Shown: positions 38,951 through 57,054, counted from the stretch's first letter. The stretch is DNA of 64,000 nucleotides from Gemmatimonadota bacterium (GCA_040905425.1 JBBDRO010000100.1:66953-130952), one strand, 5' to 3'. Numbers and translations: made by a program. The notes: generated from the sequence alone by a model not told the origin.

Positions 38951-39166
38951 CTAGCGGATGATGCCCAGCGGCAGGAGAACCGCGTAGCCGAGCACCAGCA
39001 GCAGCGGCGCGCCGACCGTGGAGCCACCCGCCAGCAGCACGTAGCCGGCCACCACGGCGAGCAGCCCGGCCACGAGCAGTACGGCGTTCACGGTGGAGAA
39101 TTCCAGCGAGCCCCGTTGCTGATCGGGGCGGGTTGGCTTCGCGCGCGTGCCGGTGCGTATATTCAT
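38951..39166 (-). CDS. Small two-TM membrane protein (71 aa), last gene of the che/mgl operon
   Basis: MNIRTGTRAKPTRPDQQRGSLEFSTVNAVLLVAGLLAVVAGYVLLAGGSTVGAPLLLVLGYAVLLPLGIIR. It lies 32 nt after the upstream peptidase gene. The rest of the 348-aa track ORF is antisense artefact. Confidence 0.5.
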   Translation of the reverse strand: MNIRTGTRAKPTRPDQQRGSLEFSTVNAVLLVAGLLAVVAGYVLLAGGSTVGAPLLLVLGYAVLLPLGIIR

Positions 39167-39198
39167 GCGCCGGAAACTGGCGGCGCTACGGGCGGCGG

Positions 39199-40230
39199 TC
39201 AAGGTGGCGGCTGTCCCGAGGGTGGCGGCGGTGGCGGCGGTGGTGGCGCTGTCCCGGGGTCCTCTCCCAACCAGTAGGCGGGTCGATCGGGAAGCTCGCT
39301 GGCGCGCAGGCGCTCCAGCCGCTCGCGGTTGCGGCGCCGCCGCAGGTAGGTGAGCGCCACCACCAGCACGGCCAGGAAGGCCCACAGCACCACGCTCTGC
39401 GCCAGAAAGACCAGCCAGCCGTAGCGGCTCCGCACCCGCTCCAGCCAGAGCCGCTCGAACTGCGTGGAGGAGACAGCGTACGTGGCGCGCATGGCCTGCT
39501 CGAAGGAACCCGTGGCCCGCCAGCGCTCCAGGAACGGTCCGAAGCCGCTCCCCCCGCCCTGCTCCGCCAGGTAGCGGACGGCATCGGCGGCCAGGAGGTA
39601 GGCCACCCGGGCCTGGCTGGTCCCGCGCGGCCAGGCCAGCGTGAGCTCGTCCAGCGACGGGGCGCTGCCGGTCAGGAACGCCACCCTGAGCATCCATCCC
39701 GCCGCCGGATCCAGCTCGCCCGCGGCCCACGTGGCGTACCCCTCGGAGAACCAGCGCGGTACCGCCGCGCGGCCCACCCGACGCTGCAACCCCACGTGCG
39801 CCAGTTCGTGCTTGAGAATGCGGGCCAGCTCGTTCATGGCGGCCGTACGCGGCGCGTGCAGGGGCAGCACGATGCGGCCCTCGAAGGGCAGCGCCACCCC
39901 CGCGCCCCACTCGGGGACCTGGCCGCCGGTCAACGCGTCGAAGGCCGCCTCGTCGGCCACCAGATGGATGTCCACCGTGTCGCCGCCCGGCCACCACCCC
40001 GCGGGGAAGCCGGGCAGCGGCAGGGCGTCCACCGCGCTCGCCAGCAGACGTTCGGCCAGTTCCCGCGCGGCGGCCGGCGCATACATGCGCATGCCGGGCC
40101 CGCGCAGCACGATGGTGGCGTCCTCCTGCCGGGCACCCGGTGCCGCGCGCCCGCCGAGGGGGGCAGCGGCGAAGAGCAGGAGAACGGCCGCGGCAACGAC
40201 CCCCGTGCGGCGCGGACTACGCCTGCGCAC
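39199..40230 (-). CDS. Membrane-anchored HEXXH zinc peptidase (peptidase MA-like) with a poly-Pro C-terminus
   Basis: Signal-like N-terminus, HELAH...WFSEGYA, a TM segment (YGWLVFLAQSVVLWAFLAVLVVALTYL), and a PPPPPPPPPSGQPPP tail. The start overlaps the cheB stop by 14 nt. Confidence 0.65.
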   Translation of the reverse strand: MRRRSPRRTGVVAAAVLLLFAAAPLGGRAAPGARQEDATIVLRGPGMRMYAPAAARELAERLLASAVDALPLPGFPAGWWPGGDTVDIHLVADEAAFDALTGGQVPEWGAGVALPFEGRIVLPLHAPRTAAMNELARILKHELAHVGLQRRVGRAAVPRWFSEGYATWAAGELDPAAGWMLRVAFLTGSAPSLDELTLAWPRGTSQARVAYLLAADAVRYLAEQGGGSGFGPFLERWRATGSFEQAMRATYAVSSTQFERLWLERVRSRYGWLVFLAQSVVLWAFLAVLVVALTYLRRRRNRERLERLRASELPDRPAYWLGEDPGTAPPPPPPPPPSGQPPP

Positions 40231-40867
40231 GGCGGGCCAGGAGCCGCATCCTGGTGACCACGGCGGCGCCCAGTTCGCTCAGCGGCAGGACGAGCTGCGC
40301 GTGCTCCGCGGCGGCGCGCGGCATGCTGCCCATGGTGGCGCTGGCCTCGTCCTGCGCCACGGTCCAGCCCCCCGCCTCCCGGATGGCGCGCATGCCCTCC
40401 GCGCCATCCCTCCCCATGCCCGTCAGCACCACGCCCGCCCCCGCCGGACCGAAGTGGCTCGCCACGGCGTGGAACAACAGGTCGGCCGTGGGGCGTAGGC
40501 CGCCCACGGGGTCCCCGTCGAGCGCCGTGAAGACCACGCCGGCCGCCGTCCTGGCCAGACCCAGATGCGCACCGCCCGGCGCCAGGTAGACGGTGCCGGA
40601 GCGGACAAGTTCTCCCGGCACGGCCTGGCGTACCGGGAGCGGCGTCAGGCCGTTCAGCCGGGCCGTGAGGGAGCGTGTAAAGAAGGCCGGGATGTGCTGG
40701 ATGACGATCACGGCGGCGGGAAAATCACCGGGCAGCTCGGCGATCAGGCGGGCCAGTGCGGAGGGCCCACCGGTGGAGGCGGCCACGGCCACCGCCGCGA
40801 CCGCCGGGGCCGATGCCGCCGGATCGGCATGCGGCGGCGACCCCCGGGTGGACTCAGAGTTCGACAT
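40217..40867 (-). CDS. cheB: Chemotaxis methylesterase CheB, catalytic domain only (no receiver domain)
   Basis: AVAASTGGPSAL, IVIQHIP and LTGMGRDGAEG; 216 aa. The ORF has no room for an N-terminal REC domain. Confidence 0.9.
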   Translation of the reverse strand: MSNSESTRGSPPHADPAASAPAVAAVAVAASTGGPSALARLIAELPGDFPAAVIVIQHIPAFFTRSLTARLNGLTPLPVRQAVPGELVRSGTVYLAPGGAHLGLARTAAGVVFTALDGDPVGGLRPTADLLFHAVASHFGPAGAGVVLTGMGRDGAEGMRAIREAGGWTVAQDEASATMGSMPRAAAEHAQLVLPLSELGAAVVTRMRLLARRAQA

Positions 40868-41345
40868 CGGGCGCTCGCATGGAGCTTACCAGGAGGCGGC
40901 CGTCGGTCGTGTGCAGGAAGACCGAGCGGCCGTAGCCGCCGCCCACGTCCTTGGCCACGAGCGGGATGCGGACAGCATCGAGCGCGCGCGTGGCGGCTGC
41001 CACATTGCGCTGTCCCAGGTTGCGGCGGTGCTCCTCCGCCACCGATTCGAACATGCTGGCCCCGCCAACCAGGCGGGCGCGCAGGCGGCCCGGGGCCGCG
41101 CCAGCCGTACGCATCTGGTCGATCAGGACCTGCACCGCTGTGGCGGCAAAGCGTCCCAGGGGCGTGGGGCGCCGTCCATCGGCGGGATCGGGCAGCATGG
41201 CGTGGGCCATCCCGCCCACACGGGCCTCCGGGTCCCACAGGGTGATGGCCACGCAGGATCCCAGACCCAGCGCACAGAGCACCTCCCCGCTACGCCCCAC
41301 CTTCACCTCGCCGATGCGGACGGGGACGCGAATGGGCCGCGTCAT
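40854..41345 (-). CDS. cheD: Chemoreceptor glutamine deamidase CheD
   Basis: LCALGLGSCVAITLWDPEARVGGMAHAMLP, and a ...GGYGRSVF end; 163 aa. Confidence 0.9.
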   Translation of the reverse strand: MTRPIRVPVRIGEVKVGRSGEVLCALGLGSCVAITLWDPEARVGGMAHAMLPDPADGRRPTPLGRFAATAVQVLIDQMRTAGAAPGRLRARLVGGASMFESVAEEHRRNLGQRNVAAATRALDAVRIPLVAKDVGGGYGRSVFLHTTDGRLLVSSMRAPDVEL

Positions 41346-42259
41346 GTACGGCGGTACACGCGTTCACGCGGGGCCACCGGGCTGAACAGTCCCGTGGCGC
41401 TACCGAAGAGGGCCTCCACCTTCCCCAGCACCAGGAATCCCCCTGGCGCCAGAGCCGCGTGAAGGCGGCGGAAGAGATCCTCCTGCACCCGCCGTTCGAA
41501 GTAGATGATCACGTTCCGGCAGAGGATGAGGTGCTGCTCGCGTGGGAAGGGATCGCGTAGCAGATCCAGCGGCCGGAAACGAACCCTGGCGTGCAGTTGC
41601 TCGTCGACCGTGCGTTGATCAGGGCCGCCGAACCAGCGCCGGCGCCGTCCCGCATCCAGATCACCCATGGCATACTCGGCGTAGGTTCCGGAGGCGGCCG
41701 CGGCCAGCGCACCGCGGTCCACGTCGGTGGCCAGAATGCGGCAACGCTGCGGCTCCAGGCTGCCAGCACTCTCCTCCACGAGCATGGCCAGCGAATAGGC
41801 TTCCTCGCCCGCCGCGGTGCCCGCGCTCCACAGCCGTACCTCGCCCCGGACCACGGCCAGCTCCGGGACCACCGCATCACGCAGGACCTTCCAGACCTCC
41901 GGATTGCGGAGAAACTTGCTCACGTTGATGGTCACGGCGTTCAGGAGCCGCTCGAGTTCCTCCGGCTGGCCCTCGAGCAACCGCTGGTAGGCGGCGTAAT
42001 CGTGCACACCACAGGCACGCATGCGCACGGCCACGCGGCGCCGCATGCAGCGCTCCTTGTAGCTGGCGCACGCCAGGCCGGTGCGGTTCTCCACGTAGCC
42101 CAGGAGGGCACCCAGCTCCGCCACTTCACGCTCGGTCAGCGGACCGTGCGCCAGCGGGAGGATGGCGTTCGGAGCGGCCCGGCGGTCCGCGGGCGGACGG
42201 ACCACGCGGCCCGCCCGCGGGGGCGGCGTGGCGCCGTTGGCGCGCTCCTCAGCCGGCAT
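41342..42259 (-). CDS. cheR: Chemotaxis protein methyltransferase CheR
   Basis: Start at MPAEERANG. The CheR N-domain is followed by a SAM domain (RLWSAGTAAGEEAYSLAMLV, ILCRNVIIYF). Confidence 0.9.
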   Translation of the reverse strand: MPAEERANGATPPPRAGRVVRPPADRRAAPNAILPLAHGPLTEREVAELGALLGYVENRTGLACASYKERCMRRRVAVRMRACGVHDYAAYQRLLEGQPEELERLLNAVTINVSKFLRNPEVWKVLRDAVVPELAVVRGEVRLWSAGTAAGEEAYSLAMLVEESAGSLEPQRCRILATDVDRGALAAAASGTYAEYAMGDLDAGRRRRWFGGPDQRTVDEQLHARVRFRPLDLLRDPFPREQHLILCRNVIIYFERRVQEDLFRRLHAALAPGGFLVLGKVEALFGSATGLFSPVAPRERVYRRT

Positions 42260-43868
42260 GCTCCACGATCTCCAGATTGTTGCGCACCACGCGATTGTGC
42301 GGGTTGAGCTCCAGGGCGCGGGTCCAGTGGCGCACCGCCTCCTCCCGCTGCCGTCCCTTGTAGAGCACATTGCCCATCTTGGCGTGCAGGTCATCCCCCA
42401 GGTCGGGATCCAGCTCGGCGGCGCGCTGATAGTGCTCCAGGGCGTCCTCGTGGAGGCCGCGCCGATAGATCACGTCCCCCAGGTTCTTGTGTGCCTGCGC
42501 CAGGCCGGGCTCTTCCTCTGAAGCGCGCCGATAACAGGCCTCCGCATGATCCAGGTTGCCACGCCGCTCGTGCACCAGCCCAGCCAGGAGGTGGACAGAG
42601 GCGGCATTGGGATGCGCCTCGACCGCCTCACCGGCCAGCGCGGCGGCACGGTCCAGGTCCCCGCCAAGCGCCGCAGCGAGCCCCGCGAAATGGTAGTACT
42701 GGGGAGAGGGCACCGCCGTGCCCAGCCGCCTGCGATACTCGGCATAGGCCTCGGCCGCTTCCGCGGGCCGCAGGGCATGGGTGAGCGTGAGGCCGCGTGC
42801 CAGCGCCACGGTCGGCGTGCCCGCCCGCAGCGTCTCCGCCTCATCCAGCACCAGGAGAGCGTCATCGAAGCGCTCCAGCGCGCGTAGGGAAACGGCCAGA
42901 TTCACGAAGGCGGCGAACTGCGGGCCGTGATCCTCCAGCAGGGACTTGAGCTGCCGCACCGCGGCGCGGTGGCGGCCGTCGCGCATGGCGGACAGCGCCA
43001 GATGGAAGCGGGCGGAGAGATCGTGCGGTTCCAGTTCCAGCACCCGCCCGAACTCACGCTGCGCATCCTCCAGCATGCCTGCGCGGAAGAACGCGGTCCC
43101 CAGGTTGCGGCGCTCCGCCAACTCCGCCGCCTTGCCGCGGCCACCCTCCTTTTCCTTGCGGCGCCCCACCCGATGGCAGAATCCCGCCTGGATGAGGCCG
43201 AAGAGCGCCTGCCCCACGGTGAACTCCACCAGCCCGCTCTCGTCCACCAGATCCTGAACGCTGCGCTCCCCGTCCAGCAGCAGGACAATGCGCTGCTGCT
43301 CCGCGGTGAGTTCCACATCGGAGGTGAGCAAACGCTCACTCTCCACTTCGAAGACCAGATCCAGGGAGGGGATCTTCTTCTCGATCAGGCTCCACTCGTC
43401 CACCCGGCGGGCGGCCTCCAGCAGGAGACTCTCCGGATTGATGGACACCAGGATGTCCGCCGAGTCGGGCTGCTCCCCCACCTCGAAGTAGAAGCTGCCG
43501 CGCGACCAGGTGAAGAGATGGTAGATGGCCTCTTCGATCTGCAGCCGGACGTAGCGCTCCAGATCCGCGCTGGTGATGTGGCCCTGCTCCACGAGCAGCT
43601 CTCCCACGCGGCGGTCAGGCTGCTGTGTCTGCAGCGCCAGTACCGCCTCGAGCTGCTCCTGCGTGAGGACGTCGTCGCGCACCAGGAGATCACCCAGGCG
43701 GTCCCGTCGGTTCACGACCTGTGCATACGTGATGCGGCCGGCTTCGAAGTAGATCTGACCGAAGCGCGAGCGATCCGTAACGGAAAGGCAACCGGTCTTC
43801 TGACCGAGCGCCAGGAGCTGGCACACGTCGGCCAGACTGGCCTCCTTCAGACTCCCCTTGATGGCCAT
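42249..43868 (-). CDS. PATAN (DUF4388) domain protein with a helical insertion and C-terminal TPR repeats (paralogue 2)
   Basis: Start at MAIKGSLKEASLADVCQLLALGQKTGCLSV. It has an inserted LGDLLVRDDVLTQEQLEAVLALQ / VGELLVEQGHITSADLERY repeat, then TPRs (VLELEPHDLSARFHLA, AAELDPDLGDDLHAKMG, ALELNPHN). Confidence 0.75.
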   Translation of the reverse strand: MAIKGSLKEASLADVCQLLALGQKTGCLSVTDRSRFGQIYFEAGRITYAQVVNRRDRLGDLLVRDDVLTQEQLEAVLALQTQQPDRRVGELLVEQGHITSADLERYVRLQIEEAIYHLFTWSRGSFYFEVGEQPDSADILVSINPESLLLEAARRVDEWSLIEKKIPSLDLVFEVESERLLTSDVELTAEQQRIVLLLDGERSVQDLVDESGLVEFTVGQALFGLIQAGFCHRVGRRKEKEGGRGKAAELAERRNLGTAFFRAGMLEDAQREFGRVLELEPHDLSARFHLALSAMRDGRHRAAVRQLKSLLEDHGPQFAAFVNLAVSLRALERFDDALLVLDEAETLRAGTPTVALARGLTLTHALRPAEAAEAYAEYRRRLGTAVPSPQYYHFAGLAAALGGDLDRAAALAGEAVEAHPNAASVHLLAGLVHERRGNLDHAEACYRRASEEEPGLAQAHKNLGDVIYRRGLHEDALEHYQRAAELDPDLGDDLHAKMGNVLYKGRQREEAVRHWTRALELNPHNRVVRNNLEIVEHAG

Positions 43869-43890
43869 CAGCCGCCTTCCTTCCGGCGCC

Positions 43891-45675
43891 TCATTCGCCC
43901 TCCTCCAGCGGTACGTCCTGATGGCCGGGCCAGTCCCAGAGCGCCTTTTCACGGCTCGTGAACCAGTGGTCCAGCGCCCCCCCCCGCCCCACCAGGGCGC
44001 CAGCTTCCCGCGGCGCGGGATCGGCGATGGGACGCAGACCCGCTGGCGCGGCCACCGGCTCCGTCCCGGAGGCCTCCTCATCCACGCTGCCGGAGGCGGT
44101 GAGTTCCACCACCAGCCCGGTCTCGAGGCGCCCACGGAGCCGATCCTCCAGGCCGTCGATCAAAGCCGGCGGGCCGGCGGCGCTGAAGAGCAGACGGGCC
44201 CCCGCACGACGTAGATGGTCGAAGAGGTGGAAGAGCTCCTCCTGGGCGCCCTCGGTGTCCGCCAACTCGTCCACGTCGGGCATGACCAGTACCCCCACCC
44301 GGCGCAGCCGGGCGCGCCAGGCCTCTACACCGTCGTGACCGAGCGCGTCCACCAGTTCGGAAGCAAATTCACGGCCTGGCAGCCAGGCCACGGTGAGCCC
44401 CTTCTGCAATTCCGCGATCTCGCGTGCCACGGCGGCCAGCACACGCTCGGCCAGTTCCCGGTCCCCGTGCAGGAAGTAGGGCACGTACCGGTCTCCGGTC
44501 CCCTGGGCCACCGCCGCACCGGCGCGCACGGCAAGATGGTTGGCGGGCAACGGCAACTCGGCCAACGTGGGCCCGGGTGGCGGCCGGGGCACGGGACGGG
44601 TGCGCGCCTGCACGGCCACCAGCAGTCCTTCCGCCTCCGTCACCCGCGCCGGGTCGCGCAGCACGTCGGTGCGCTCCAGCTCCGGGGCGTCACCCTCCGC
44701 TTCACGAATGAGGCGGGCCACGGTGCGCAGCCGCTCCACGCGTGACGCGAACCCCGTCAGGAACGCCTCCACCGCGGCCTCGGCCGGCGGGCTCGCCAAC
44801 GCCTCCTCAAGCAGGCGGGTGCGGAAGCCCTCCCCCTCCCAGCGGAGGATGGCCTCGGCCAGTTTGGCCTCGCTGCCGCCCGGCGAGACCACCTGACCGA
44901 TCGTGCCGGTGATCTCCGTCAGGAAGGCGCCGAACTCGTCGGGACCGCGCCGGTCCAGGGCCAGGCCGAGGAGACGACCCGCCTCCTCCATGCTCACCTG
45001 GCGGCCCTCCAGTTCCTGGATGGCCAGGATCCGGTTGAGTGCGCCCTGCAGCTCCCGCACGTTCGCGAAGGCGCCGCGCGCCAGGGCCTCCGTCACCCCA
45101 TCGCCGAGGGCCTGCCCGCGCTCCTCCGCCTTGCGGCGCACGATGGCCGCGCGGGTCTCCATGTCAGGCGGTGCCAGATCCGCTATAAGCCCCCCGGAGA
45201 AGCGGCTGAGGAGCCGATCGTCCAGTTCGTCGATCTCCGTGGGCGGACGGTCGCTGGCCAGCACCACCTGCCCGCCGCGCGACGCCATGCCGTCCCACGC
45301 CCGCAGCAACTCCTCCTGAACGGCTCGCCGTCCCGCCAGGAACTGGATATCGTCGAGCAGGAGGAGATCCGCGGCGTGGATCCGCTCCCGGAAGGCATCG
45401 CGCTGCCCGGACCGGATGGCACTCATCACGCCCTCCACCAGATGCTCCATGGTGTCGTAGGTGATGCGCAGGTCCGGATGGATGGTGCGCGTATGCTGCC
45501 CGATGGCCATGACCAGGTGCGTCTTGCCCAGCCCCGAGGCACTGTAGAGGAAGAGCGGGTTGTAGGCGGAGCCGGGCGTGTCGGCAACGCGCCGCGCTGC
45601 CGCAGCCGCGAGACGATTGGACGTCCCGACAATGAAGCTCTCGAAGGTGAGACGAGGGTCCAGCTCCAGCGACAT
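43891..45675 (-). CDS. DnaA-domain-III (Hda-like) AAA+ ATPase, internally duplicated, lacking DnaA domains I, II and IV
   Basis: The N-half aligns by eye to DnaA domain III: LDPRLTFESFIVGTSNRLAAAAARRVAD, Walker A SASGLGKTH, Walker B LLLLDDIQF, box VII DRLLSRF, sensor 2 NVRELQGALNRI. Residues around 395-560 repeat the same order with the P-loop lost. No DnaA signature or HTH is present. Confidence 0.85.
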   Translation of the reverse strand: MSLELDPRLTFESFIVGTSNRLAAAAARRVADTPGSAYNPLFLYSASGLGKTHLVMAIGQHTRTIHPDLRITYDTMEHLVEGVMSAIRSGQRDAFRERIHAADLLLLDDIQFLAGRRAVQEELLRAWDGMASRGGQVVLASDRPPTEIDELDDRLLSRFSGGLIADLAPPDMETRAAIVRRKAEERGQALGDGVTEALARGAFANVRELQGALNRILAIQELEGRQVSMEEAGRLLGLALDRRGPDEFGAFLTEITGTIGQVVSPGGSEAKLAEAILRWEGEGFRTRLLEEALASPPAEAAVEAFLTGFASRVERLRTVARLIREAEGDAPELERTDVLRDPARVTEAEGLLVAVQARTRPVPRPPPGPTLAELPLPANHLAVRAGAAVAQGTGDRYVPYFLHGDRELAERVLAAVAREIAELQKGLTVAWLPGREFASELVDALGHDGVEAWRARLRRVGVLVMPDVDELADTEGAQEELFHLFDHLRRAGARLLFSAAGPPALIDGLEDRLRGRLETGLVVELTASGSVDEEASGTEPVAAPAGLRPIADPAPREAGALVGRGGALDHWFTSREKALWDWPGHQDVPLEEGE

Positions 45676-45682
45676 TGCTCTC

Positions 45683-46312
45683 CTAGGTAGTGGCTGCGCC
45701 CGTCGGCGGCGCTTCGATCTTCTGACGGAAGCGGCGCGACAGGCTCTGCAACGTGAGCTGGCTGACCGCCTTCAGGGTGTCGAAGACGCCGTCCCCGGTG
45801 AGCGCCGCGGCCGGGAACGCCGGTACGTCACGAAAGTTCAACGTGTCATCCAGGTCGGCCACGCTCATGATCCCCGGCAGGTCCCGCTTGTTGTACTGCA
45901 GGACCATGGGGAAGTCTTCCAGCTCCACGTTTTCCTCCAGGAGATTCTCGTGGAGATTGCGCAGACTGTCCACGTTCTCCTCCATCTTCTCCCGCTGCGA
46001 ATCGGCCACGAAGACCACGCCGTCGGCCCCGCGCAGTACCAGCTTGCGGGTGGCGTTGTAGTACACCTGACCGGGCACCGTGTACAGTTGTACGCGCGTC
46101 CGGAACCCTGAGATCGTGCCCAGGTCGAGCGGCAGGAAATCGAAGAAGAGCGTGCGGTCTGTCTCCGTGGCCAGGGAGACCATGGGTCCCTTCCGCTCGT
46201 CCGGCACGTACGCGTGCACGTACTGGAGGTTGCTCGTCTTGCCGGACCGCCCCGGCCCGTAATAGACAATCTTGCAGGTGATCTCACGGGTGGAATAATT
46301 GACCAGGGACAT
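45683..46312 (-). CDS. mglA: Ras-like small GTPase MglA
   Basis: MSLVNYSTREITCKIVYYGPGRSGKTSNLQY...TETDRTLFFDFLP...LYTVPGQVYY...QYNKRDLP. It is near-collinear with Myxococcus MglA as I recall it, including the intrinsic Arg and Gln positions. Confidence 0.93.
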   Translation of the reverse strand: MSLVNYSTREITCKIVYYGPGRSGKTSNLQYVHAYVPDERKGPMVSLATETDRTLFFDFLPLDLGTISGFRTRVQLYTVPGQVYYNATRKLVLRGADGVVFVADSQREKMEENVDSLRNLHENLLEENVELEDFPMVLQYNKRDLPGIMSVADLDDTLNFRDVPAFPAAALTGDGVFDTLKAVSQLTLQSLSRRFRQKIEAPPTGAATT

Positions 46313-46342
46313 GGTTCGATTCCTGGGAGGGGGAGGCGTTCG

Positions 46343-46828
46343 TCAATCCGGGTCCGACTCGAAGACCCGCTGGATCCCCGCTTCGAGATCTCGCTCGAAA
46401 CTGGCCTGATCCGTGGATCCCAGGTCGGCGCCGAATATGGGCAATGCGGCCAGGTCGGCCGCCAGACGGTCGAAGAAGAACTGTACCAGACCGAGCGTGG
46501 AGCCGCCGTCGAAGATCGTCACCACGATCAATTCCTCTACCGGAGTCTTCACGGGTGCCAGGAAGAGCTGCCGCTCCCTGCCCGCATGGTAGAGATGGGT
46601 CCACCGCCCCGCGCCCGAAATCTCGGCGAGCATACGGGAGGAGGCGTGTGCCGCCGCGGCCAGCGATGCCACGTTCACCACTTCGTAGCTGCTGGCAAAC
46701 CCGTGCTGCGCCAGCACCTGCCCCGAGTGGTTCACCAGCAGCGCCAGGCGGACCCGCGCCTCGCGTACGAAGCCATGCATGGGCTCGCGCACCGCACCCA
46801 TGATGGCGGGCAGTTCGTCACTTCTCAT
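46343..46828 (-). CDS. mglB: Roadblock/LC7 protein MglB (MglA GAP family) with an acidic tail
   Basis: ALLVNHSGQVLAQHG...VVTIFDGGSTLGLVQFFFDRLAADL parallels MglB VVIFDNRTSLGLVRLRIKKASDEL. The gene order mglB-mglA matches Myxococcus. Confidence 0.85.
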   Translation of the reverse strand: MRSDELPAIMGAVREPMHGFVREARVRLALLVNHSGQVLAQHGFASSYEVVNVASLAAAAHASSRMLAEISGAGRWTHLYHAGRERQLFLAPVKTPVEELIVVTIFDGGSTLGLVQFFFDRLAADLAALPIFGADLGSTDQASFERDLEAGIQRVFESDPD

Positions 46829-48155: not shown

Positions 48156-48180
48156 TCCTCGTTGCCGCCATGCAGGAAGC

Positions 48181-49305
48181 TCATCGGGCCCCGCTCTCGA
48201 CCACCCGCGTCAGCACGCGCAGGGCGGCCAACCCCTCATCCACGACCTTCCGCTCATCACCATCGGGCATCAGGCGCAGGTAGGTGTCCCATGCGCGCGC
48301 GCCGCGCTCCAGGTCCCCGGTGCGCACGGCCGAGAAGCCCAGGCGGAAGTGCCCTTCGGTGGAGAGCGGATCCAGCCCCACGGCCCGTGCGTAAGCCTCC
48401 GTTGCCGCGCGCATGCGCCGCTGCGCCTCCAGGGCCCGACCCGCCAGCAGGGCAATCTCCGCGTGCTCGGGGTATGCGGTCTCGAGTTCCGCGGCCAGTT
48501 TCTGCGCCTCCTCCACACGGCCGTCGGCCAGGTGTTGCTCGGCCCGCGCCATGGCCTCCCGGAGCTCACCTTCCGGTACGTGGCTGCGCTGCTCCTGCAC
48601 CTGCAGCACACCCGTGCTCACCAGTCCGTAGATCGTCTTGGCCACGTCGAACGCGCTGCGTCCCAGGTCCGCCGCGATCTGCCGGATATCCCGGTGCGCG
48701 TCGATTTCCGCGAGCACCTCCCACTCCTCCGTGCGCAGGTCGAGCGGCGCCGCCTCGCGCTCGGCGGCCGGGGCCAGCACCGGCACCGCCTCGGGACCGG
48801 GCACCTTGGATTCCAGCCGCGTCCATTCATCGATCCGCCGGGCACCCTCCATGAGCAGCGACTCCACCCGCACCTGGGCCAGCAGGCGGCCCTGACCGAT
48901 GCCGGCACGCTCCTCGAAGCGGAAGTACCCCTCGTCCCAGCCCATCAGTTCGTAGACGGTCTCCTCCATCTGGAAGCGGAGTTGCCGCTCCAGTTCTTCC
49001 TCCGTGATGCTCCCCATCTCCAGGAGGATCTCGGCCAGTCGGCGCGTGGGGTCGGTGCGCTGCAGTTCGAGCGCGCGATCCAACTCCCGCTGCGTGAGTC
49101 GACCGGCCCGGATGAGCAGCTGCCCCAGCCGCCGCGGCGAGCGCCGCCGTACCGCGAACACGATGGCGCCCCGACTGAAGTGGACGATGGCCTCGTCGTT
49201 CAAACGATCCGAGCGAACCGTCAGCACGCCGGTCTTGTGCGCCAGTTCGAGGAGCTGGAGCACGTCCTGGATGCTGAGTTCCTCGAGGGGCCCCTCGATG
49301 GCCAC
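48181..49305 (-). CDS. PATAN (DUF4388) domain protein with a helical insertion and C-terminal TPR repeats (paralogue 1)
   Basis: GTG start at VAIEGPLEELSIQDVLQLLELAHKTGVLTV. The insertion is LGQLLIRAGRLTQRELDRALELQ / LAEILLEMGSITEEELERQ, followed by TPRs. The upstream 96 aa of the track ORF overlap the TPR gene. Confidence 0.75.
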   Translation of the reverse strand: MAIEGPLEELSIQDVLQLLELAHKTGVLTVRSDRLNDEAIVHFSRGAIVFAVRRRSPRRLGQLLIRAGRLTQRELDRALELQRTDPTRRLAEILLEMGSITEEELERQLRFQMEETVYELMGWDEGYFRFEERAGIGQGRLLAQVRVESLLMEGARRIDEWTRLESKVPGPEAVPVLAPAAEREAAPLDLRTEEWEVLAEIDAHRDIRQIAADLGRSAFDVAKTIYGLVSTGVLQVQEQRSHVPEGELREAMARAEQHLADGRVEEAQKLAAELETAYPEHAEIALLAGRALEAQRRMRAATEAYARAVGLDPLSTEGHFRLGFSAVRTGDLERGARAWDTYLRLMPDGDERKVVDEGLAALRVLTRVVESGAR

Positions 49306-49318
49306 GCGCCCTCCCCGC

Positions 49319-52012
49319 CTACGTGGCCGCGACCGGCGCCGCGCCCGGCGCCGCGCTCTGGAGCCGCTCCAGCGCAGCGCTGGCGTCCGCGTTGCCGGGG
49401 TCGAAGCCGAGGGCGCGCCGATAGGCCACGCGCGCCTTGCCGTGCATGCCGGCATCCTCCAGCACCGCCCCCAGGCGAACCAGACCCTGGAGGTGGTAGG
49501 GATCCACCGTGAGGAGATCCACCAAGGCGGCGATGGCCTCGCGGTGGTGCCCGCGCCCGCGCTCGACCTCCGCCAGCCCGAGCGCGGCCTCACCGTAGCT
49601 GGGCAGGACCGCCAGCGCCACGCGGTACTCCGCCGCCGCCGCCGCCGCGTCCCCCCGCCGCGTCAGCACCCGTGCCAGAGCCGTGCGCGCCGCCGGCGCG
49701 TCCCCGCCACGCTCCAGAGCGTCACGCAACGCCCGCTCGGCGCGGGCCGTTTCGCCGGCCTCCAGGGCGGCGCGACCGAGCTGCGTGAGCAGGCCGGGAT
49801 TGGCCGGTCCGGTGTCCACGGCCTCCTCCAGGACCAGCATGGCCCGGCCGTGGTCGCCCACCTGGGTCAGTCCCTCCGCCAGCGTGCGCAGCGCCACCAC
49901 GTCACCCGGGAACAGCTCGGTGAGTCGCTCGGCCGCCTCCACCGCTTCCCGCGGCCTGTCGAGCTGGAGCAGCGAGCGGGCGGCGCCGAGCAACGCCCTG
50001 CCGAGGGCGGCCTCGCCCTCGTCGTCCTCGTCGCTCGCCGTACCACCTCGCGCCACCTCGGCCAGGGCGGCCTCGAAACGCTCCACCGCCTCACCCGCCG
50101 CGCCGCGGCGCAGGAAAGCCTCACCCTGCAGAAGGAGGCCCTGCACCCGGGGGCCGCCCTCCTGGATCATGTGCAGGGCCTCACGCTGCACCGCCTCCAG
50201 GTCTCCCCGGTCGAGCGCGGCCTGCGCCGCGGCCAGCCGGCTCCGGCCGCCCGCGGGGGAAGCGGCCTGGCCCGAACCCTCCCGGGCAAAGACCGAATCC
50301 AGCTCGCCCGCATCAGGCACGAAGGCCTCGATGGGCTGCCCGGGGCGGACCTCCTCCGCCGCGTCCAGCTCGGGCGCCAGCACGCTCGTCTCCTCGTACT
50401 GCAGGTCGATGAGCAGCCGGTGGCGCGCGGGGGGGATGAAGGGGCTCTTCTCCAGGGCGTGCCGGGTCTCCCGCAGCGCACCCTCGTAGTCCCCCAGTGC
50501 GGACAGGGCGAACGCCAGGTTGTAGCGTGCCTCGGCCAGGTCGGGGTCGAGCTCTACCGCGCGTACGAGAGCATCGCGCGCTCCGGAGGCATCGCCACCC
50601 TCCATGAGCGCGGCGCCCAGCCCGGCCCAGGCGGGGGCGGCGCCGTCATCGGCCTGCAGGGCCACGCGAAAGGTCTCGACCGCCTCGCCATGGCGGCCGG
50701 CGCGTTGCAGCAGGAGCGCCAGGTTGCGGGCCACGTCGGCCGTGGCCCGTCCGCCCTCGAGTGCTCGCCGCAGCAGTTGCTCGGCCGGCTGCGGCCGCCC
50801 CTGGTGCAGCTCCGCGACGGCCAGGTTGTTCAGGACCAGGACGTAACTACCGTCCAGTTCGAGCCCGCGCCGGTAGGCGGCCGCGGCACCGTCCAGATCC
50901 CCCTGCTGGTGCCGCGCCACGCCAAGCTCGTTCCACAGCTTGGGAGAATCAGCCTGCTGCCGCGTGAGCGCCTCGTAGAGACTGACGGCTTCCGCGTCCC
51001 CCCGCAGCAGCAGCATCTCCGCCTGGGCCTGCTGCACCAGTTGAGCGTCCTCCCCCCTTTCCGTGGCCAGGCGGAACTCCCGCAGCGCCTCGTCGAAAAG
51101 CGCCTTCTGCCGGAAGGCAATGCCCAGATTGTAGTGGGCCAGCGCCGCGTTCTCGGCCACGGCGGGTCCCTCGCCACGCTCGCCCACCAGCTCCTGATAC
51201 CGGGCGTTGCTGTGGCTGTCCAGGGACAGATTGGTCTCGGCGCGGGACAGTGACGGGTTGAGCTCGGACGCACGGGCCGCAGCGCTGCCCGCCTGTTCCT
51301 CCATGCCCAGGTCACCGTAAACGAAGGCCAGGAGGTGATGCGCCTCCGCCAGCGACGGCTGGAGCTGGACCGCCATCTCCAGCGGTCCCCGCGCCTCGGC
51401 GCTTCGTCCCTGCTGGTACTTCACCTCCCCCATGAGGAGGTGTGCGCGGGCGTTCGAAGCGTCCAGCGCCGCCGCGTTGCCCAGCGCCACCAGCGCCTCG
51501 TCCGGACTGCCCCGCCGCAGCTCGGCGCGCGCCAGCATGAGGTAGACGGCGGCGTCGCGCGGACGACCCGTCTGGACGGCACGCCACTCACGCACCGCCG
51601 CCTCGGCGTCCCCCGAATGGTAGTAGGCGCGCGCGAGCCGCTCCCGGGCCACGAGGTCATCGGCGTCGCGAGCCAGCGCGGCGCGGGCATCGGCCACCAG
51701 CCGCTCGAAGTAGCCGGTGCCGAAGAAGACGATGCGCAGATTGCGCTCCGCCACCTGCATGCGGGGATCCAGTTCGAGGGCGCGCTCGAACTGTTCCGCG
51801 GCATCCCCGAAGAGTCCCTTGTGATAGTAGACCACGCCCAGGTTGTTGTGGGCGTTCGGGTCATCCTGCTTGATACGGCGGGCCAGGCCGCGGAGCAACT
51901 CGGCGTCCCGCTCCGAACGCGGCTGTGCGCCCTGGGGCCGGCTGCGCGGACCGTCGCCTCGATCCCGCCAGGGAAGCGTGGGCTGCTGCGGCTCGGGCCG
52001 GGGCGTACTCAC
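49319..52012 (-). CDS. Large TPR-repeat protein (897 aa)
   Basis: About 20 TPR-like units throughout (NNLGVVYYHKGLFGDAAEQFERALELDP, YNLGIAFRQKALFDEALREF, WNELGVARHQQGDLDGAAAAYRRGLELD). The GTG start overlaps the cheC stop (GTGA). Confidence 0.8.
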   Translation of the reverse strand: MSTPRPEPQQPTLPWRDRGDGPRSRPQGAQPRSERDAELLRGLARRIKQDDPNAHNNLGVVYYHKGLFGDAAEQFERALELDPRMQVAERNLRIVFFGTGYFERLVADARAALARDADDLVARERLARAYYHSGDAEAAVREWRAVQTGRPRDAAVYLMLARAELRRGSPDEALVALGNAAALDASNARAHLLMGEVKYQQGRSAEARGPLEMAVQLQPSLAEAHHLLAFVYGDLGMEEQAGSAAARASELNPSLSRAETNLSLDSHSNARYQELVGERGEGPAVAENAALAHYNLGIAFRQKALFDEALREFRLATERGEDAQLVQQAQAEMLLLRGDAEAVSLYEALTRQQADSPKLWNELGVARHQQGDLDGAAAAYRRGLELDGSYVLVLNNLAVAELHQGRPQPAEQLLRRALEGGRATADVARNLALLLQRAGRHGEAVETFRVALQADDGAAPAWAGLGAALMEGGDASGARDALVRAVELDPDLAEARYNLAFALSALGDYEGALRETRHALEKSPFIPPARHRLLIDLQYEETSVLAPELDAAEEVRPGQPIEAFVPDAGELDSVFAREGSGQAASPAGGRSRLAAAQAALDRGDLEAVQREALHMIQEGGPRVQGLLLQGEAFLRRGAAGEAVERFEAALAEVARGGTASDEDDEGEAALGRALLGAARSLLQLDRPREAVEAAERLTELFPGDVVALRTLAEGLTQVGDHGRAMLVLEEAVDTGPANPGLLTQLGRAALEAGETARAERALRDALERGGDAPAARTALARVLTRRGDAAAAAAEYRVALAVLPSYGEAALGLAEVERGRGHHREAIAALVDLLTVDPYHLQGLVRLGAVLEDAGMHGKARVAYRRALGFDPGNADASAALERLQSAAPGAAPVAAT

Positions 52013-52626
52013 ACGAGCCTCAGCGCCCGGAGCATGGCCTCCAGCGACGCGTCATCCGGAATGAGCAGGAAGTGGGCGCCCATCTCCGTTTTACCGTCCA
52101 GCATGAGGTCCGTATTCATGACGAAGACAAAGTCCTGGTCCGCACCGAAATTCACATAGCTGGTGGACAGCACCGCGCCCACCATGTCCATGGCAAAGGA
52201 GGGCACGGACATGATGAGCAGCATGCCCATGAACTCGGAGAGCGCGTTCAGGTAGGCGCCCACGATGATGTTGCCCACCTCTTCCAGGATGGACTGCTCG
52301 GCCGGTCCGAGATCACGTGGGAACTCCAGGCCCTTGCGGCCTCCCATGATCTCCACCAGTACGGCGGCGGTGCCAGCGGGGAAAAGCTGGAGGGTTCGTC
52401 CGGTGACGTCCCCCAGGACCTTCATCACCACGGCGGAGACGGGCTCCTGGGGGTCGCCCATGGCCGAGGAAACATCCTCGAGTGCCACTACCTTCACCTC
52501 GGGCACTGACACGGTGATGGCCCGCGTGGTCATGTCCGACAACGCCGTGGCCGCGTGCCCCGCGCCGATATTGGCGATCTCGCGGAGCGCGGAGTACTGG
52601 ATCTCGGTGAGGCCGCGCACGTCCAT
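52009..52626 (-). CDS. cheC: CheC-family CheY-P phosphatase
   Basis: Two CheC repeats: SALREIANIGAGHAATALS and ILEEVGNIIVGAYLNALS (the D/S-X3-E-X2-N-X22-P type context); 205 aa. Confidence 0.85.
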   Translation of the reverse strand: MDVRGLTEIQYSALREIANIGAGHAATALSDMTTRAITVSVPEVKVVALEDVSSAMGDPQEPVSAVVMKVLGDVTGRTLQLFPAGTAAVLVEIMGGRKGLEFPRDLGPAEQSILEEVGNIIVGAYLNALSEFMGMLLIMSVPSFAMDMVGAVLSTSYVNFGADQDFVFVMNTDLMLDGKTEMGAHFLLIPDDASLEAMLRALRLV

Positions 52627-52630
52627 TCGA

Positions 52631-54442
52631 TCAGCTCACACTCAGGGGGTCCAGCACCAGGGCGGGCCTGCCATCCGCCAGCAGCGTGGCGCCGGAGAAG
52701 AGCGGCAGCGCCCCCACGCCCGGATGGAAGGCCTTCACGAGGATCTGCTCGCGGCGTACGATCTCGTCCACGCCCAACGCAAAGCGACGTTCGCCCGACT
52801 CGGCCACCACCGCCGCCCGCTCGCCCCCCTCCGGATCCACCCCCAGGACGGCGCGCATGCGGATGAGCCGGACCGGCTCGTCACGCAGTACGAGCCATTC
52901 CCCCGTGCCGTCCACGCGCACCGAAGTGAGGGCAAAATCCACCGCCTCCGATACGTGCGTGAGCGGCACGGCGTAGATCTCCTGGCCCACCCGCACCTGC
53001 AGGGCGGGCGCCACGGCCAGCGTGAGCGGCAGCCGCATCACGAAGTCGGTGCCCTGCCCCGTCCGGGTCCGCATGTCGATAGCGCCGCCGAGCGCGCGCA
53101 CACGGTTCACCACCGCGTCCAGCCCCACCCCACGGCCTGAGACCTCCGTCACCGCGGCGGCCGTGGAGAAGCCGGGGTGGCTGAGGATCCGAAAGAGCTC
53201 GTCGTCTTCCAGCACGCCGTCGAAATCGGCGGGCAGGATGCCACGCTCCTGTGCGCGTTCCACCACCGTCTCCTGATGCACGCCGCCGCCATCGTCCTGC
53301 AGGGTGATCCGCACGCTCGTGCGCTCGCGCTCGGCGGCCAGGCGGATCTGCCCGCGGGGAACCTTGCCAGCGGCACGGCGCGCCTCGTTGCCCTCCAGGC
53401 CGTGGTCTACGGCGTTGCGCAGGAGATGGACGATGGGATCCACGATCTCGTCGAGGATGGCACGGTCGAGTTCGATGTCCTGCCCCTCCATGACCAGTTC
53501 CACGTCCTTGCCGAGCGAGCGGGCCGCGTCCCGCACCACGCGGGGGAAGCGCTGGAAAACGTCGGCCACCGGGACCATGCGCATCGAGAGCACTGCGTGC
53601 TGCAGCTCGGACGCCACGGTACTGATGCGGGAAGCGACGTCCCCCATCCCGTTCACGGCGGCTACGTCCAGCTCTCCGGCATACTCCGCCAGCCGGCCCT
53701 GCAGCACGGCCAGTTCCGCCACGCGCTCGGCCACCTCGTCGAGGCGCCGCTGATCCACGCGCACCTGGGTAGCGGTGGCCCGAGCCGGACCGGACCGCCC
53801 GGCCGCCTGCGAGTCCCCCCGCTCGACCGTGGCGCTGGCCACCTCCCCCGCCGCGCGCAGCGCCACCGTGACGGCCTCCGCGTCGGCATCCTCCTCGAGC
53901 AGAACCAGAAAACGTCCGTCGAAGGCCTCGTCGAACTCCGCGGGTAGCGTACCTACGACTCCTCCCACCGCGCGCGCCGCGACCACCGCGAGCAGCGCGC
54001 GCGCGGCTTTGATGGGCGCGTCCTCTTCCAGGCGCACGCGCACGGCGGGCACGCCGGCCGGGCGGGCCGGTCCGGCACGGTCCCGCCCCGCGGTCCCCGC
54101 GGGTGCGGCCGCGGCGGCCACGTCGGGTGACGGATCCAGCGCGGCGGCCTGGAGCCGGTCGGCCGCGGCCAGCAAGGCGTCCACGAGTTCCGGGTCCACC
54201 TCCAGCGTGCCAGCACGCACCGCGTCCAAGCGGTCCTCGAGCGCGTGTGCCTGCTCGGTCACCAGGGTGTAGCCCATGCTCGCGGCCATCCCCTTCAGGG
54301 TGTGGGCGGCACGGAACGCCGCGGCCACCGCCTGGCGCGCCTCCTCCCCGCCCGCTTCCAGGGCCAGGATGCTCTGGGTCAGCCGCTGCAGATGCTCTTC
54401 GGCCTCGGCTGCGTAGAGGGCGCGGAAGCGGTCGACATCCAT
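52631..54442 (-). CDS. cheA: Chemotaxis histidine kinase CheA
   Basis: Start at MDVDRFRALYAAEAEEHL. Hpt domain AAHTLKGMAASMG, then a dimerisation/HATPase region (HLLRNAVDHGLE, DDGGG, GRGVGLDAV) and a C-terminal CheW-like domain. Confidence 0.93.
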   Translation of the reverse strand: MDVDRFRALYAAEAEEHLQRLTQSILALEAGGEEARQAVAAAFRAAHTLKGMAASMGYTLVTEQAHALEDRLDAVRAGTLEVDPELVDALLAAADRLQAAALDPSPDVAAAAAPAGTAGRDRAGPARPAGVPAVRVRLEEDAPIKAARALLAVVAARAVGGVVGTLPAEFDEAFDGRFLVLLEEDADAEAVTVALRAAGEVASATVERGDSQAAGRSGPARATATQVRVDQRRLDEVAERVAELAVLQGRLAEYAGELDVAAVNGMGDVASRISTVASELQHAVLSMRMVPVADVFQRFPRVVRDAARSLGKDVELVMEGQDIELDRAILDEIVDPIVHLLRNAVDHGLEGNEARRAAGKVPRGQIRLAAERERTSVRITLQDDGGGVHQETVVERAQERGILPADFDGVLEDDELFRILSHPGFSTAAAVTEVSGRGVGLDAVVNRVRALGGAIDMRTRTGQGTDFVMRLPLTLAVAPALQVRVGQEIYAVPLTHVSEAVDFALTSVRVDGTGEWLVLRDEPVRLIRMRAVLGVDPEGGERAAVVAESGERRFALGVDEIVRREQILVKAFHPGVGALPLFSGATLLADGRPALVLDPLSVS

Positions 54443-54452
54443 GGAGGTCGGT

Positions 54453-54815
54453 TCAGCCCAGCACGCGCTGTACGGCTTCGAGCACGCGGGAAGGCTGGAA
54501 CGGTTTGACCACGAAGTCGCGCGCCCCCGCCTGGATAGCTTCGATGACCAGCGCCTGCTGTCCCATGGCGCTGCACATGAGGATACGGGCTTTGGGGAAC
54601 TCCTTGACGATCGCGCGCACGGCATCGATACCGCCCATGTCCGGCATCACGATGTCCATGGTGACCAGATCCGGTTTCAACTCGCGGTATTGTTCCACCG
54701 CCTCGGAGCCGGTCTGCGCTTCACCGACCACCTCGAAGCCCGCCTGCTTCAGGATCTCTCCCAGCATGGTGCGCATGAAGAGTGCGTCATCGCAGATCAG
54801 AACGGTTCGTGCCAT
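54453..54815 (-). CDS. cheY: Chemotaxis response regulator CheY (stand-alone receiver)
   Basis: MARTVLICDDALFMR...DLVTMDIVMPDMGG...FVVKPF; 120 aa. Confidence 0.93.
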   Translation of the reverse strand: MARTVLICDDALFMRTMLGEILKQAGFEVVGEAQTGSEAVEQYRELKPDLVTMDIVMPDMGGIDAVRAIVKEFPKARILMCSAMGQQALVIEAIQAGARDFVVKPFQPSRVLEAVQRVLG

Positions 54816-54849
54816 GGTTCCTCGATGGGATGGTTCGTGCGGCGGCGCC

Positions 54850-55342
54850 TCATGCGGCCAGCAGCCGTTCGATGAGCGCATCGGGGTTCAGCAGCAGCGC
54901 GCGGTGCCCGGCCAGTTCCGCCACGCCCAGGACGTCCCCGGGTTCGAGCCCCATGCCGCGGAGTTCGTCCTCGTCGAGCGCCGCCCAGTCGGCGGCGCCC
55001 GGCGCCCCCCGGAGCCATCCGGAGCACTTCCTCCACGGCCAGAGCCAGCGGGCGCTCGCCGTCGTCCACGAAGACGAGCCGGTGCCCCGGCCGCGCGGCG
55101 GCCGGCCGTAGGCGCAGCACCACGCCCAGGTCACAGACGGTGACTACGAGGCCGCGCAGCCCTACCAGCCCGCACACTTCCGGACCGCAGCCGGGCAGCC
55201 GCGTGACCGGCCGCGGCGTGGTGATCTCGCGCACCCGGTCGAGCGGCAAGCCAAGCCGGTGGCCGTCACACGTGAGCAGCACCCAGCGCGGTAGCGGGGC
55301 CGTGGTCGATCCCCCGTCGGACGTGACCGCCGTGCTCTCCAT
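54850..55342 (-). CDS. cheW: CheW coupling protein, apparently frameshifted at a G6 run (C6 on the plus strand, 55005-55010)
   Basis: The N-part is in the frame of track ORF 54797..55342 (WVLLTCDGHRLGLPLDRVREI...PLALAVEEVLRMAPGG). The C-part is in the frame of ORF 54850..55134 (APGAADWAALDEDELRGMGLEPGDVLGVAELAGHRALLLNPDALIERLLAA). Removing one G restores a CheW of about 164 aa. Confidence 0.75.
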
Positions 55343-55404: not shown

Positions 55405-55479
55405 CCGCGCGCCCACGCGTGTGGGGGCCGGCCTCCGAACCATGGGACCATGCGTGCGCGCGCGCCGGCCTGCGGACGC

Positions 55480-57051: not shown

Positions 57052-57054
57052 CCT

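Follow-up and report, generated by a model that had tools for sequence, protein, structure and literature searches.

Can a chemosensory pathway and a small GTPase of cell polarity be encoded, and work, as one unit? The question is raised by a locus in a 64,000-nucleotide stretch of DNA from a Gemmatimonadota bacterium (GCA_040905425.1, JBBDRO010000100.1:66953-130952; the window), where 17 co-directional genes on the minus strand, running from position 55342 to 38951, combine chemotaxis (Che) proteins with an MglA GTPase, Roadblock proteins, tetratricopeptide repeat (TPR) and PATAN-TPR proteins, a DnaA-like tandem ATPase (DnaA2) and a membrane peptidase. In Myxococcus, how the Che system communicates with MglA is still debated, and the parts are scattered over the genome and involve several connector proteins. 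The Frz pathway of this genus acts on MglA (PMC3441718), and the Frz and MglA modules are encoded at separate loci (PMC4316618). Gemmatimonadota, by comparison, keep MglA and its Roadblock partners tightly packed in one operon with candidate effectors and a complete Che pathway, throughout the phylum. We read the locus as a single, vertically inherited and Gemmatimonadota-specific signalling operon built in three layers, with Che and MglA as inputs onto a core of ATPase, PATAN protein and peptidase, and we put the probability of this reading at about one in two. It rests on gene content, gene order, tight spacing, intact motifs, conservation across the phylum and the correlated loss of whole modules, all of which were directly observed.

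The window has a G+C content of 72%, and its genes were chosen from the raw list of open reading frames (ORFs), their translations and codon-position G+C (GC3 frame profiles). Domains were called with Pfam, structure-linked matches came from sequence searches of the PDB, and curated models were applied at their NCBIfam cutoffs. The operon genes, in the order of transcription, are as follows.

54850..55342, minus strand: cheW, frame-broken, 493 nt only if the shift is bridged (bridged protein against Pfam CheW, E=1e-20)
54453..54815, minus strand: cheY, a single-domain response regulator of 120 aa (Response_reg, E=5e-31)
52631..54442, minus strand: cheA, with P1-P5 and no receiver (Hpt, P2, H-kinase_dim, HATPase_c and CheW domains; PDB CheA, E=6e-85)
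52009..52626, minus strand: cheC, family of phosphatases of phosphorylated CheY (CheY-P) (CheC, E=4e-20; CheX, E=9e-8)
49319..52012, minus strand: all-TPR protein of 897 aa (many TPR families; its start overlaps the cheC stop by 4 nt)
48181..49305, minus strand: PATAN(DUF4388)-TPR protein 1 (DUF4388, E=6e-32; MshEN-like tandem motif at residues 59-112)
47172..48149, minus strand: TPR-Roadblock fusion (TPR families; Robl_LC7 at residues 219-291, E=7e-4)
46825..47175, minus strand: stand-alone Roadblock/LC7 protein of 116 aa (Robl_LC7, E=9e-6; PDB Roadblock chains, E=1e-6)
46343..46828, minus strand: MglB-like Roadblock protein of 161 aa (Robl_LC7, E=8e-9; Myxococcus xanthus MglB 6h5b, E=2e-8)
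45683..46312, minus strand: mglA, a group-1 MglA GTPase (GPGRSGKT P-loop, DRTLFFDF, TVPGQ, NKRD; Pfam Arf-like GTPase)
43891..45675, minus strand: DnaA2, a tandem DnaA-domain-III AAA+ protein (Bac_DnaA in two stretches, E=8e-82)
42249..43868, minus strand: PATAN(DUF4388)-TPR protein 2 (DUF4388, E=1e-39; MshEN-type tandem motif at residues 57-110)
41342..42259, minus strand: cheR methyltransferase (CheR, E=2e-45; CheR_N; its 11-nt overlap with PATAN 2 is also found in the relative L001, described below)
40854..41345, minus strand: cheD (CheD, E=4e-27)
40217..40867, minus strand: cheB methylesterase, no receiver domain (CheB_methylest, E=9e-56)
39199..40230, minus strand: HExxH membrane peptidase with the motif HELAH (Peptidase_MA_2, E=8e-11)
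38951..39166, minus strand: protein of 71 aa with two hydrophobic segments (translation and hydropathy)

The genes are tightly spaced. The largest gap is 34 nt (cheW/cheY), the remaining gaps measure 10, 4, 13, 31, 30, 7, 22 and 32 nt, and seven junctions are overlaps of 4 nt (cheC/TPR, TPR-Roadblock/Roadblock, Roadblock/mglB and cheR/cheD), 11 nt (PATAN 2/cheR) or 14 nt (cheD/cheB and cheB/peptidase). An earlier, sequence-only reading of this DNA had counted 17 genes, no gap above 34 nt and seven overlaps; the ORF map and junction arithmetic gave identical values, and the Pfam profile search agreed with every one of its domain assignments for the operon genes. Overlaps of 4, 4, 11, 4 and 14 nt recur in the 5.4-Mb chromosome L001, where the DnaA-like protein shares 53% identity with that of the window. 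Simple consensus and pattern scans, our source for promoter-like and terminator sites, placed one candidate start signal ahead of the first gene.

55375..55404, minus strand: promoter-like site TTGACC-18-TATCTT (consensus scan, sigma-70-like), 33 nt 5' of the cheW start in the 199-nt rluD-cheW gap

No intergenic terminator was found in the operon; the scan, uninformative at 72% G+C, returned 5 sites where 3.8 were expected. The stretch at 55478-55553, spanning the rluD stop into the rluD-cheW gap just upstream of the promoter-like site, consists of 3.4 copies of a 22-nt unit (GCGGGCCGGGCGCCGGTGGCTA). The Rfam scan of the window gave a tRNA only, with no riboswitch such as c-di-GMP-I/II.

Conservation of the arrangement was examined by scanning one genome per GTDB species with family-specific peptide patterns; at least 600 stretches matched and 550 relatives were confirmed, and the best 80 of at least 550 genome relatives supplied the loci for comparison. 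Operon content was established for each locus by tblastn of the 17 window proteins against the fetched sequences, with upstream genes counted in the 49 loci that have at least 9.3 kb of upstream sequence and downstream genes in the 50 that have at least 6 kb downstream. The order cheW-cheY-cheA-cheC-TPR-PATAN-TPR/Roadblock-Roadblock-mglB-mglA-DnaA2-PATAN-cheR-cheD-cheB-peptidase, with or without the small membrane gene, was found at about 46 of 49 species-level loci and is kept down to 38% identity of the DnaA-like protein. Among the upstream-complete loci, cheY, cheA and cheC were present in 46/49, the 897-aa TPR gene in 47/49, the genes of the GTPase module in 42-44/49 (the TPR-Roadblock fusion in 44/49) and rluD directly upstream in 43/49. 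The downstream-complete loci all carry the second PATAN gene (50/50), and have the peptidase in 49/50, cheD and cheB in 47/50 and cheR in 42/50; orthologues of the 71-aa protein were detected in 25/50 despite their small size. Che, mglBA and DnaA-III genes thus recur together, the outcome of the neighbourhood survey that the sequence-only reading had proposed, and the arrangement is not unique to this genome. The two che blocks that it had seen bracketing the GTPase module prove to be inherited across Gemmatimonadota.

All of the best 80 loci belong to this phylum (Longimicrobiales, Gemmatimonadales, Gemmatimonas), and no carrier outside it was found among them. One locus labelled 'Myxococcales' (L055) was considered as an outside carrier and rejected as mislabelled, because it is 92-98% identical to a Gemmatimonadota contig. 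Cultured carriers include Gemmatimonas groenlandica TET16 (CP053085.1, 1.704-1.726 Mb), where the operon lies between lspA-rluD and rsmH-ftsI, and Gemmatimonas phototrophica AP64, where it occupies RS07750-RS07805. In a published expression table for the latter, RS07750 (RluA), RS07755 (CheW), RS07760 (response regulator), RS07780 (DUF4388), RS07785 (GTPase) and RS07805 (CheB) have similar expression. Gemmatimonas aurantiaca is probably a carrier as well, judging from its published 'PATAN>MglA>-PATAN>' neighbourhood.

The layered organization emerges from loci that have lost parts of the operon at the same chromosomal site. In L012 both che blocks are missing together, so that rluD is followed directly by the 897-aa TPR gene and the second PATAN gene by the peptidase. 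L028 and L079 are without cheR, cheD and cheB, and the Gemmatimonas lineage is without all three Roadblock genes, with mglA directly after PATAN. L068, L070 and L082 are the most reduced in the che and GTPase genes: che and mglA are missing, and ileS-rluD is followed only by a single Roadblock gene, then DnaA2 and PATAN-TPR, with the peptidase and the small membrane protein last. These variants leave three proteins as the invariant centre, namely the DnaA-like ATPase, PATAN-TPR protein 2 and the peptidase, with the che and mgl genes as optional layers. To the sequence-only reading the locus had looked like a hard-wired Che-to-GTPase device; the inheritance of the arrangement throughout the phylum agrees with that description, and the dispensability of che, MglA and Roadblock (L012; L068, L070 and L082; Gemmatimonas) does not.

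We therefore describe the operon in three layers and propose how they could work together. The core would consist of DnaA2, which has no DNA-binding domain, a PATAN-TPR protein with an MshEN-type insert, the HExxH transmembrane peptidase and the small membrane protein. To the GTPase layer would belong MglA, as many as three Roadblock proteins, of which one is MglB-like, the other PATAN-TPR protein and the 897-aa TPR protein, and the Che layer would be formed by CheW-CheY-CheA-CheC on one side and CheR-CheD-CheB on the other, with receptors encoded elsewhere. Chemoreceptors at unlinked loci would regulate CheA; CheY-P, reset by CheC, would act on the Roadblock, PATAN or TPR proteins to shift MglA between its GTP and GDP forms, by analogy with Frz/FrzX/RomR; and the PATAN(MshEN) proteins would sense cyclic di-GMP (c-di-GMP) as a further input. 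The ATP-dependent DnaA2 could then be placed or switched by MglA-GTP and the scaffolds, either where the peptidase extends its tail into the cytoplasm or at a polar machine encoded elsewhere, for example type IV pili. The outcome would be a spatial or polarity output rather than control of flagellar rotation, the candidates being type IV pili, the envelope, and division or budding. The sequence-only reading had left the output unassigned on the grounds that no motility genes lie nearby. The window did contain no identifiable flagellar, pilus or chemoreceptor genes, and the argument passed over another possibility, namely that the output is the conserved membrane peptidase and the ATPase themselves.

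The ATPase at the centre of the proposal is a bona fide DnaA domain III in its first module, as in DnaA and Hda. This module is 42% identical to domain III of Bacillus subtilis and Thermotoga maritima DnaA (TM-score 0.91-0.92), and the family alignment shows its AAA+ motifs (Walker A, Walker B, sensor I, box VII Arg, sensor II) to be invariant or conserved at 90% or more. Unlike DnaA and Hda, the protein joins two such modules in tandem, lies in a signalling rather than a replication context and was seen, among the matches listed, only in Gemmatimonadota. An AlphaFold2 model (pLDDT 79, pTM 0.45) has two AAA+ cores with helices between them and a disordered tail; residues 268-359 form a confidently modelled helical linker, for which a fold search with the whole model returned nothing, the matches being DnaA, Hda and generic AAA+ proteins only. 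The equivalent of Escherichia coli R245 is presumably not conserved (hand alignment, own numbering). Pfam found no match to DnaA domains I, II or IV (no DnaA_C). The protein does not match the make-up of the replication initiator, in which an N-terminal domain I and a C-terminal, DnaA-box-binding domain IV are expected. G. phototrophica has a separate, genuine DnaA (RS00010 in the published expression table). Homologues of DnaA2 at 50% identity or more number in the hundreds, all named Gemmatimonadota or Longimicrobiales, and MglA is 83-88% identical in the organisms that carry them. Of the ten most divergent full-length representatives of 50%-identity clusters (1.84 billion clustered proteins), three have organism names, all Gemmatimonadales. 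The same representative search also returned giant proteins with 6-9 DnaA-domain-III-like stretches (P0337, P0340, P0364 and P0386; 1248-1420 aa) and two very long proteins with an N-terminal DnaA-like module (P0286 and P0292; 1876-1990 aa).

Both PATAN proteins carry a helical insertion with the tandem 24-residue MshEN motif, RLGxxLLxxGxLxxxxLxxxLxxQ, of c-di-GMP-binding domains (Wang et al., 2016; PMC5013675). Here the two units are separated by about 5-6 residues in a module of about 53 residues. Against the NCBIfam model NF053729 ('c-di-GMP motif, MshE-related'; cutoff 38), PATAN 1 scored 43.8 bits and PATAN 2 scored 49.3 bits, and residues 54-113 of PATAN 2 matched the N-domains of PilB (5zfr, E=4e-5) and MshE (5htl, E=1e-4). 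The tandem motif is retained in 73 of 78 PATAN 2 orthologues and in 29 of 80 PATAN 1 orthologues; some key positions differ, such as G10, which is D in motif 1 of PATAN 2. The homology to PilB and MshE N-domains makes the PATAN alpha-helical insertion a probable, predicted c-di-GMP-binding site, and an insert of this type may be common to PATAN domains in general. In contrast to MshE and PilB, where the motif forms the N-terminus of a secretion ATPase, it sits here within a PATAN domain fused to TPR, and binding is predicted from the motif. The two proteins were also considered as PatA-type PATAN-REC regulators, an identity ruled out by their PATAN+TPR architecture, in which Pfam detected no receiver domain (Response_reg).

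The PATAN insert is also an argument for an operon that steers type IV pili, setting twitching polarity or piliation, with the Che proteins and c-di-GMP acting through PATAN(MshEN)-TPR and MglA on unlinked PilB/PilT and with the ATPase and peptidase as accessories. In Myxococcus, MglA reportedly works with the TPR protein SgmX on these pili. PilB1 of Synechocystis is bound by PATAN regulators, S-motility depends on the PATAN protein SgnC, the insert is homologous to the c-di-GMP-binding N-domain of PilB/MshE, and marine environments are the only ones from which Gemmatimonadota lack type IV pilus genes (PMC10581226). Set against this, pil genes are missing from the window and from the annotated flanks, the operon TPR proteins are not SgmX members (the 897-aa protein, tried as SgmX, was ruled out at 22.6 bits against an NCBIfam cutoff of 1800), the conserved core persists without MglA, and the invariant peptidase and ATPase are left unexplained. 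We consider it unlikely that the operon is dedicated to pili in this way.

The peptidase, too, belongs to the invariant centre. HExxH is present in 57/57 orthologues, and hydropathy predicts an N-terminal signal or transmembrane segment, a C-terminal transmembrane segment and then a cytoplasmic tail, which is conserved as a basic RRRRDxxRL...PPDxPAYW or as AAERAARESAL; the tail would be a plausible TPR ligand. Flagellinolysin was the best NCBIfam match of the peptidase and was rejected, the score lying far under the cutoff. The counterpart of the 71-aa protein in G. groenlandica has 56 aa.

Such a peptidase could also make the core an envelope or division (budding) device, in which the ATPase and PATAN-TPR protein control a periplasm-facing metallopeptidase at the pole or septum and MglA and Che are optional inputs. 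Gemmatimonas is said to have been described as budding in its species description. The invariance of the peptidase and its cytoplasmic tail and the minimal variant of Roadblock, ATPase, PATAN and peptidase only would fit, as would the position of the operon between divIVA-ileS-lspA-rluD and the dcw cluster. The sequence-only reading had likewise noted that the locus sits next to divIVA and dcw. Both are indeed nearby, and the divIVA side belongs to a conserved housekeeping block (yggS-divIVA-ileS-lspA-rluD), so that proximity is weak evidence of function. The divIVA-ileS-lspA-rluD order is the same in Firmicutes; the flanking arrangement is an ancient one and the adjacency may be historical. 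Further, no substrate or link to a division protein was found and the peptidase family is uncharacterised. A device dedicated to envelope or division appears very unlikely to us.

In the GTPase layer, the MglA protein aligned over its full length (residues 1-193) with M. xanthus MglA (PDB 6h17, E=3e-76), and 77 orthologues show at least 90% conservation of the motifs GPGRSGKT, DRTLFFDF, TVPGQ and NKxD. It has the hallmarks of group 1, with Thr instead of Asp in the switch-II motif TxxGQ and with DRTLFFDF supplying an intrinsic Arg, and an MglB-like gene lies directly upstream. The 161-aa Roadblock protein scored 32.7 against a cutoff of 200 with the NCBIfam MglB equivalog, so its orthology to MglB is loose. 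In-frame arrays of 9-nt repeats differ in copy number between the window and a near-identical contig (L002) at two places, 47546-47603 (the HAA linker of the TPR-Roadblock protein) and 39203-39248 (the poly-proline tail of the peptidase).

The closest described relatives of this layer differ from it in instructive ways. Like the Frz-MglA/MglB/RomR system of M. xanthus, the operon joins a Che-type pathway to a group-1 MglA, a homologue of a Roadblock GTPase-activating protein and TPR companions. It has, however, no CheA-CheY fusion kinase of the FrzE kind, its CheA being without a receiver; no FrzCD-like receptor was found in the window or in 82 loci, and no RomR/RomX-like or FrzZ-like protein is encoded in the operon, where the single-domain CheY stands alone. 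It also adds CheC, CheD, the DnaA-like ATPase, the PATAN proteins and the peptidase. The actinobacterial conservon, with the histidine kinase CvnA as its sensor, the Roadblock protein CvnB, CvnC and the MglA-like GTPase CvnD, is the best-known conserved operon to unite genes of these kinds (PMC4316618). Its kinase is a membrane histidine kinase and its MglA is of group 2, whereas here CheA comes with a full adaptation set and a group-1 MglA (TVPGQ), and the conservon lacks PATAN, TPR and DnaA-like components. Makarova et al. in 2006 reportedly described PATAN-MglA-MglB neighbourhoods. Table S2 of Wuichet and Sogaard-Andersen (2015) lists G. aurantiaca GAU_1409 as 'PATAN>MglA>-PATAN>'. The entry records the association seen here, and the gene left unnamed between its MglA and second PATAN stands where the DnaA-like gene does. 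Flanking che genes, a DnaA-like ATPase, a peptidase, the MshEN motif and phylum-wide conservation do not figure in those surveys.

The Che layer has the complete F1 component set by Pfam: CheA(P1-P5), CheW, CheY, CheC, CheD, CheR and CheB. CheY and its T. maritima counterpart (1tmy) are identical at 78 of 118 residues (66%); the best PDB matches are T. maritima (F1-type) and archaeal CheYs, and across the phylum the protein is 78-84% identical. CheC and CheD together are typical of flagellar F1 systems. The similarity of CheY and the presence of CheC and CheD make the pathway F1-like, and by component set and CheY similarity it resembles the F1 class of Thermotoga, Bacillus and archaea. Unlike those systems, it has no flagellar or archaellar genes nearby, and its che genes are interleaved with a GTPase module. 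In archaea the CheF adaptor re-targets an F1 pathway, a precedent for F1 driving a non-flagellar machine. A search of the operon proteins for a FliM-like CheY-binding peptide gave one weak match only, inside the PATAN insert. Gemmatimonadaceae typically have added genes between cheB and the peptidase, which the lineage of the window is without. One or two extra CheW genes and a TPR protein of about 280-310 aa lie there in L037 (15373-17880) and L083 (15085-16394); the one gap scanned with Pfam, in L037, holds two further CheW genes and a 311-aa TPR gene.

The F1 character raises the question of whether the che genes are simply an ordinary flagellar chemotaxis set, with CheY-P acting on the flagellar switch and mglA, Roadblock, PATAN and DnaA2 co-located, perhaps for placement of a polar flagellum or array, and not downstream of CheY. 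The likeness of CheY to that of T. maritima and to archaeal CheYs, the presence of CheC and CheD, and the locus that lost its che genes and kept the rest of the operon (L012) all fit such a set, as does the single polar flagellum of G. phototrophica and G. groenlandica. Other observations argue in the opposite direction. In about 46 of 49 genomes the other genes lie enclosed by the two che blocks, with start and stop codons that overlap, and the flanks of the three loci that have their own gene calls (L001, L002 and G. groenlandica included) contain no flagellar genes. G. phototrophica also has a CheA (RS15835) that is reported to be induced with calcium, together with flagellar biosynthesis genes; it is separate from the operon, so Gemmatimonas has at least two Che kinases. 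Finally, in a survey of more than 400 metagenome-assembled genomes (MAGs) of Gemmatimonadota, soil genomes with flagellar genes numbered only one or two (PMC10581226), yet many of the complete operons among the listed loci come from soil MAGs. The second CheA and the rarity of flagellar genes in soil argue against a purely flagellar role, the latter indirectly through a comparison across datasets, and we judge such a role quite unlikely.

With these alternatives in view, several observations still weigh against the three-layered signalling operon. The CheY identity of 66% to Thermotoga, together with CheC/CheD and the polar flagellum of cultured Gemmatimonas, would suit a flagellar output. Contact between CheY-P and the operon proteins is proposed from gene context and by analogy, and a single transcript is presumed, on pattern scans plus the similar expression of six genes in one published table. 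Lineages without Roadblock, MglA or che suggest that the layers are perhaps less interdependent than a single 'device' would be. No chemoreceptor was found within 10 kb in the window or in 82 loci by tblastn with the Tsr signalling domain (E<1e-3). In this genome the second module of DnaA2 has a degenerate Walker A, which is retained in Gemmatimonas, and CheB is without the receiver that is present, as REC-CheB, in L001, L083 and most loci. The cheW frame is also shifted in the window: three-frame translation and alignment revealed a 10-nt insertion (CCGGGGGGCG) near 55003-55012, which the 99.4%-identical contig JBBDKN010000182.1 (L002) lacks. In L002, cheW is intact (160 aa) and the second PATAN gene is the interrupted one, an additional stretch of about 100 nt dividing it into products of 369 and 187 aa. 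Because two near-identical genomes each have a different broken operon gene, assembly error or population variants are likelier than decay. The cheW call of the sequence-only reading consequently holds for the CheW domain and not for an uninterrupted frame.

A bolder version of the signalling operon would have the DnaA-derived tandem ATPase leave replication and form, with PATAN(MshEN)-TPR and the transmembrane metallopeptidase, a phylum-specific spatial machine that later gained MglA and a complete F1 pathway as hard-wired inputs. We regard this as tentative and rather doubtful. If true, this would be a natural Che-to-small-GTPase circuit in one operon, the first of its kind, and its DnaA paralogue would represent a new functional class; the spatial machine may govern polar growth, budding or division in Gemmatimonadota. 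The operon itself reveals a family of DnaA paralogues without DNA-binding domain in a signalling context, and the probable c-di-GMP site of PATAN would join second-messenger, phosphorelay and GTPase signalling in one unit. Because natural variants make up a 'deletion series' (no che, no Roadblock, no mglA) and cultured carriers are available, the coupling of sensing to polarity is directly testable.

Consistent with the earlier claim that the extra components match no described system, no description of this system was found in the searchable literature, most subscription journals being outside its coverage, and a survey of Geobacter che genes left the components of the operon unmentioned. No account was found there of a complete Che pathway interleaved with MglA, of the family of tandem DnaA-III ATPases, of the peptidase as an invariant partner or of conservation throughout the phylum. 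The components are of known kinds and the PATAN-MglA-MglB linkage had already been noted; there is a real chance that the core itself is something new.

The surroundings of the operon are as follows. Towards higher coordinates lie rluD, lspA, ileS, divIVA (60197-61051), a YggS-like gene and exbB/exbD/tonB. The whole block, exbB-exbD-exbD-tonB-yggS-divIVA-ileS-lspA-rluD (55542-63999; 1-9474 in L068), is conserved across Gemmatimonadota, and the operon always lies between it and the dcw cluster. Downstream follow an ORF at 38192-38797, a tRNA, an M1 peptidase, an aminotransferase and then the dcw cluster (mraZ, ftsI, murE, mraY, murD). The tRNA (38074-38148, minus strand; Rfam, 74 bits) lies about 800 nt past the last operon gene and marks the downstream boundary, and the ORF between it and the operon gave weak CXXCH/multihaem-like matches.

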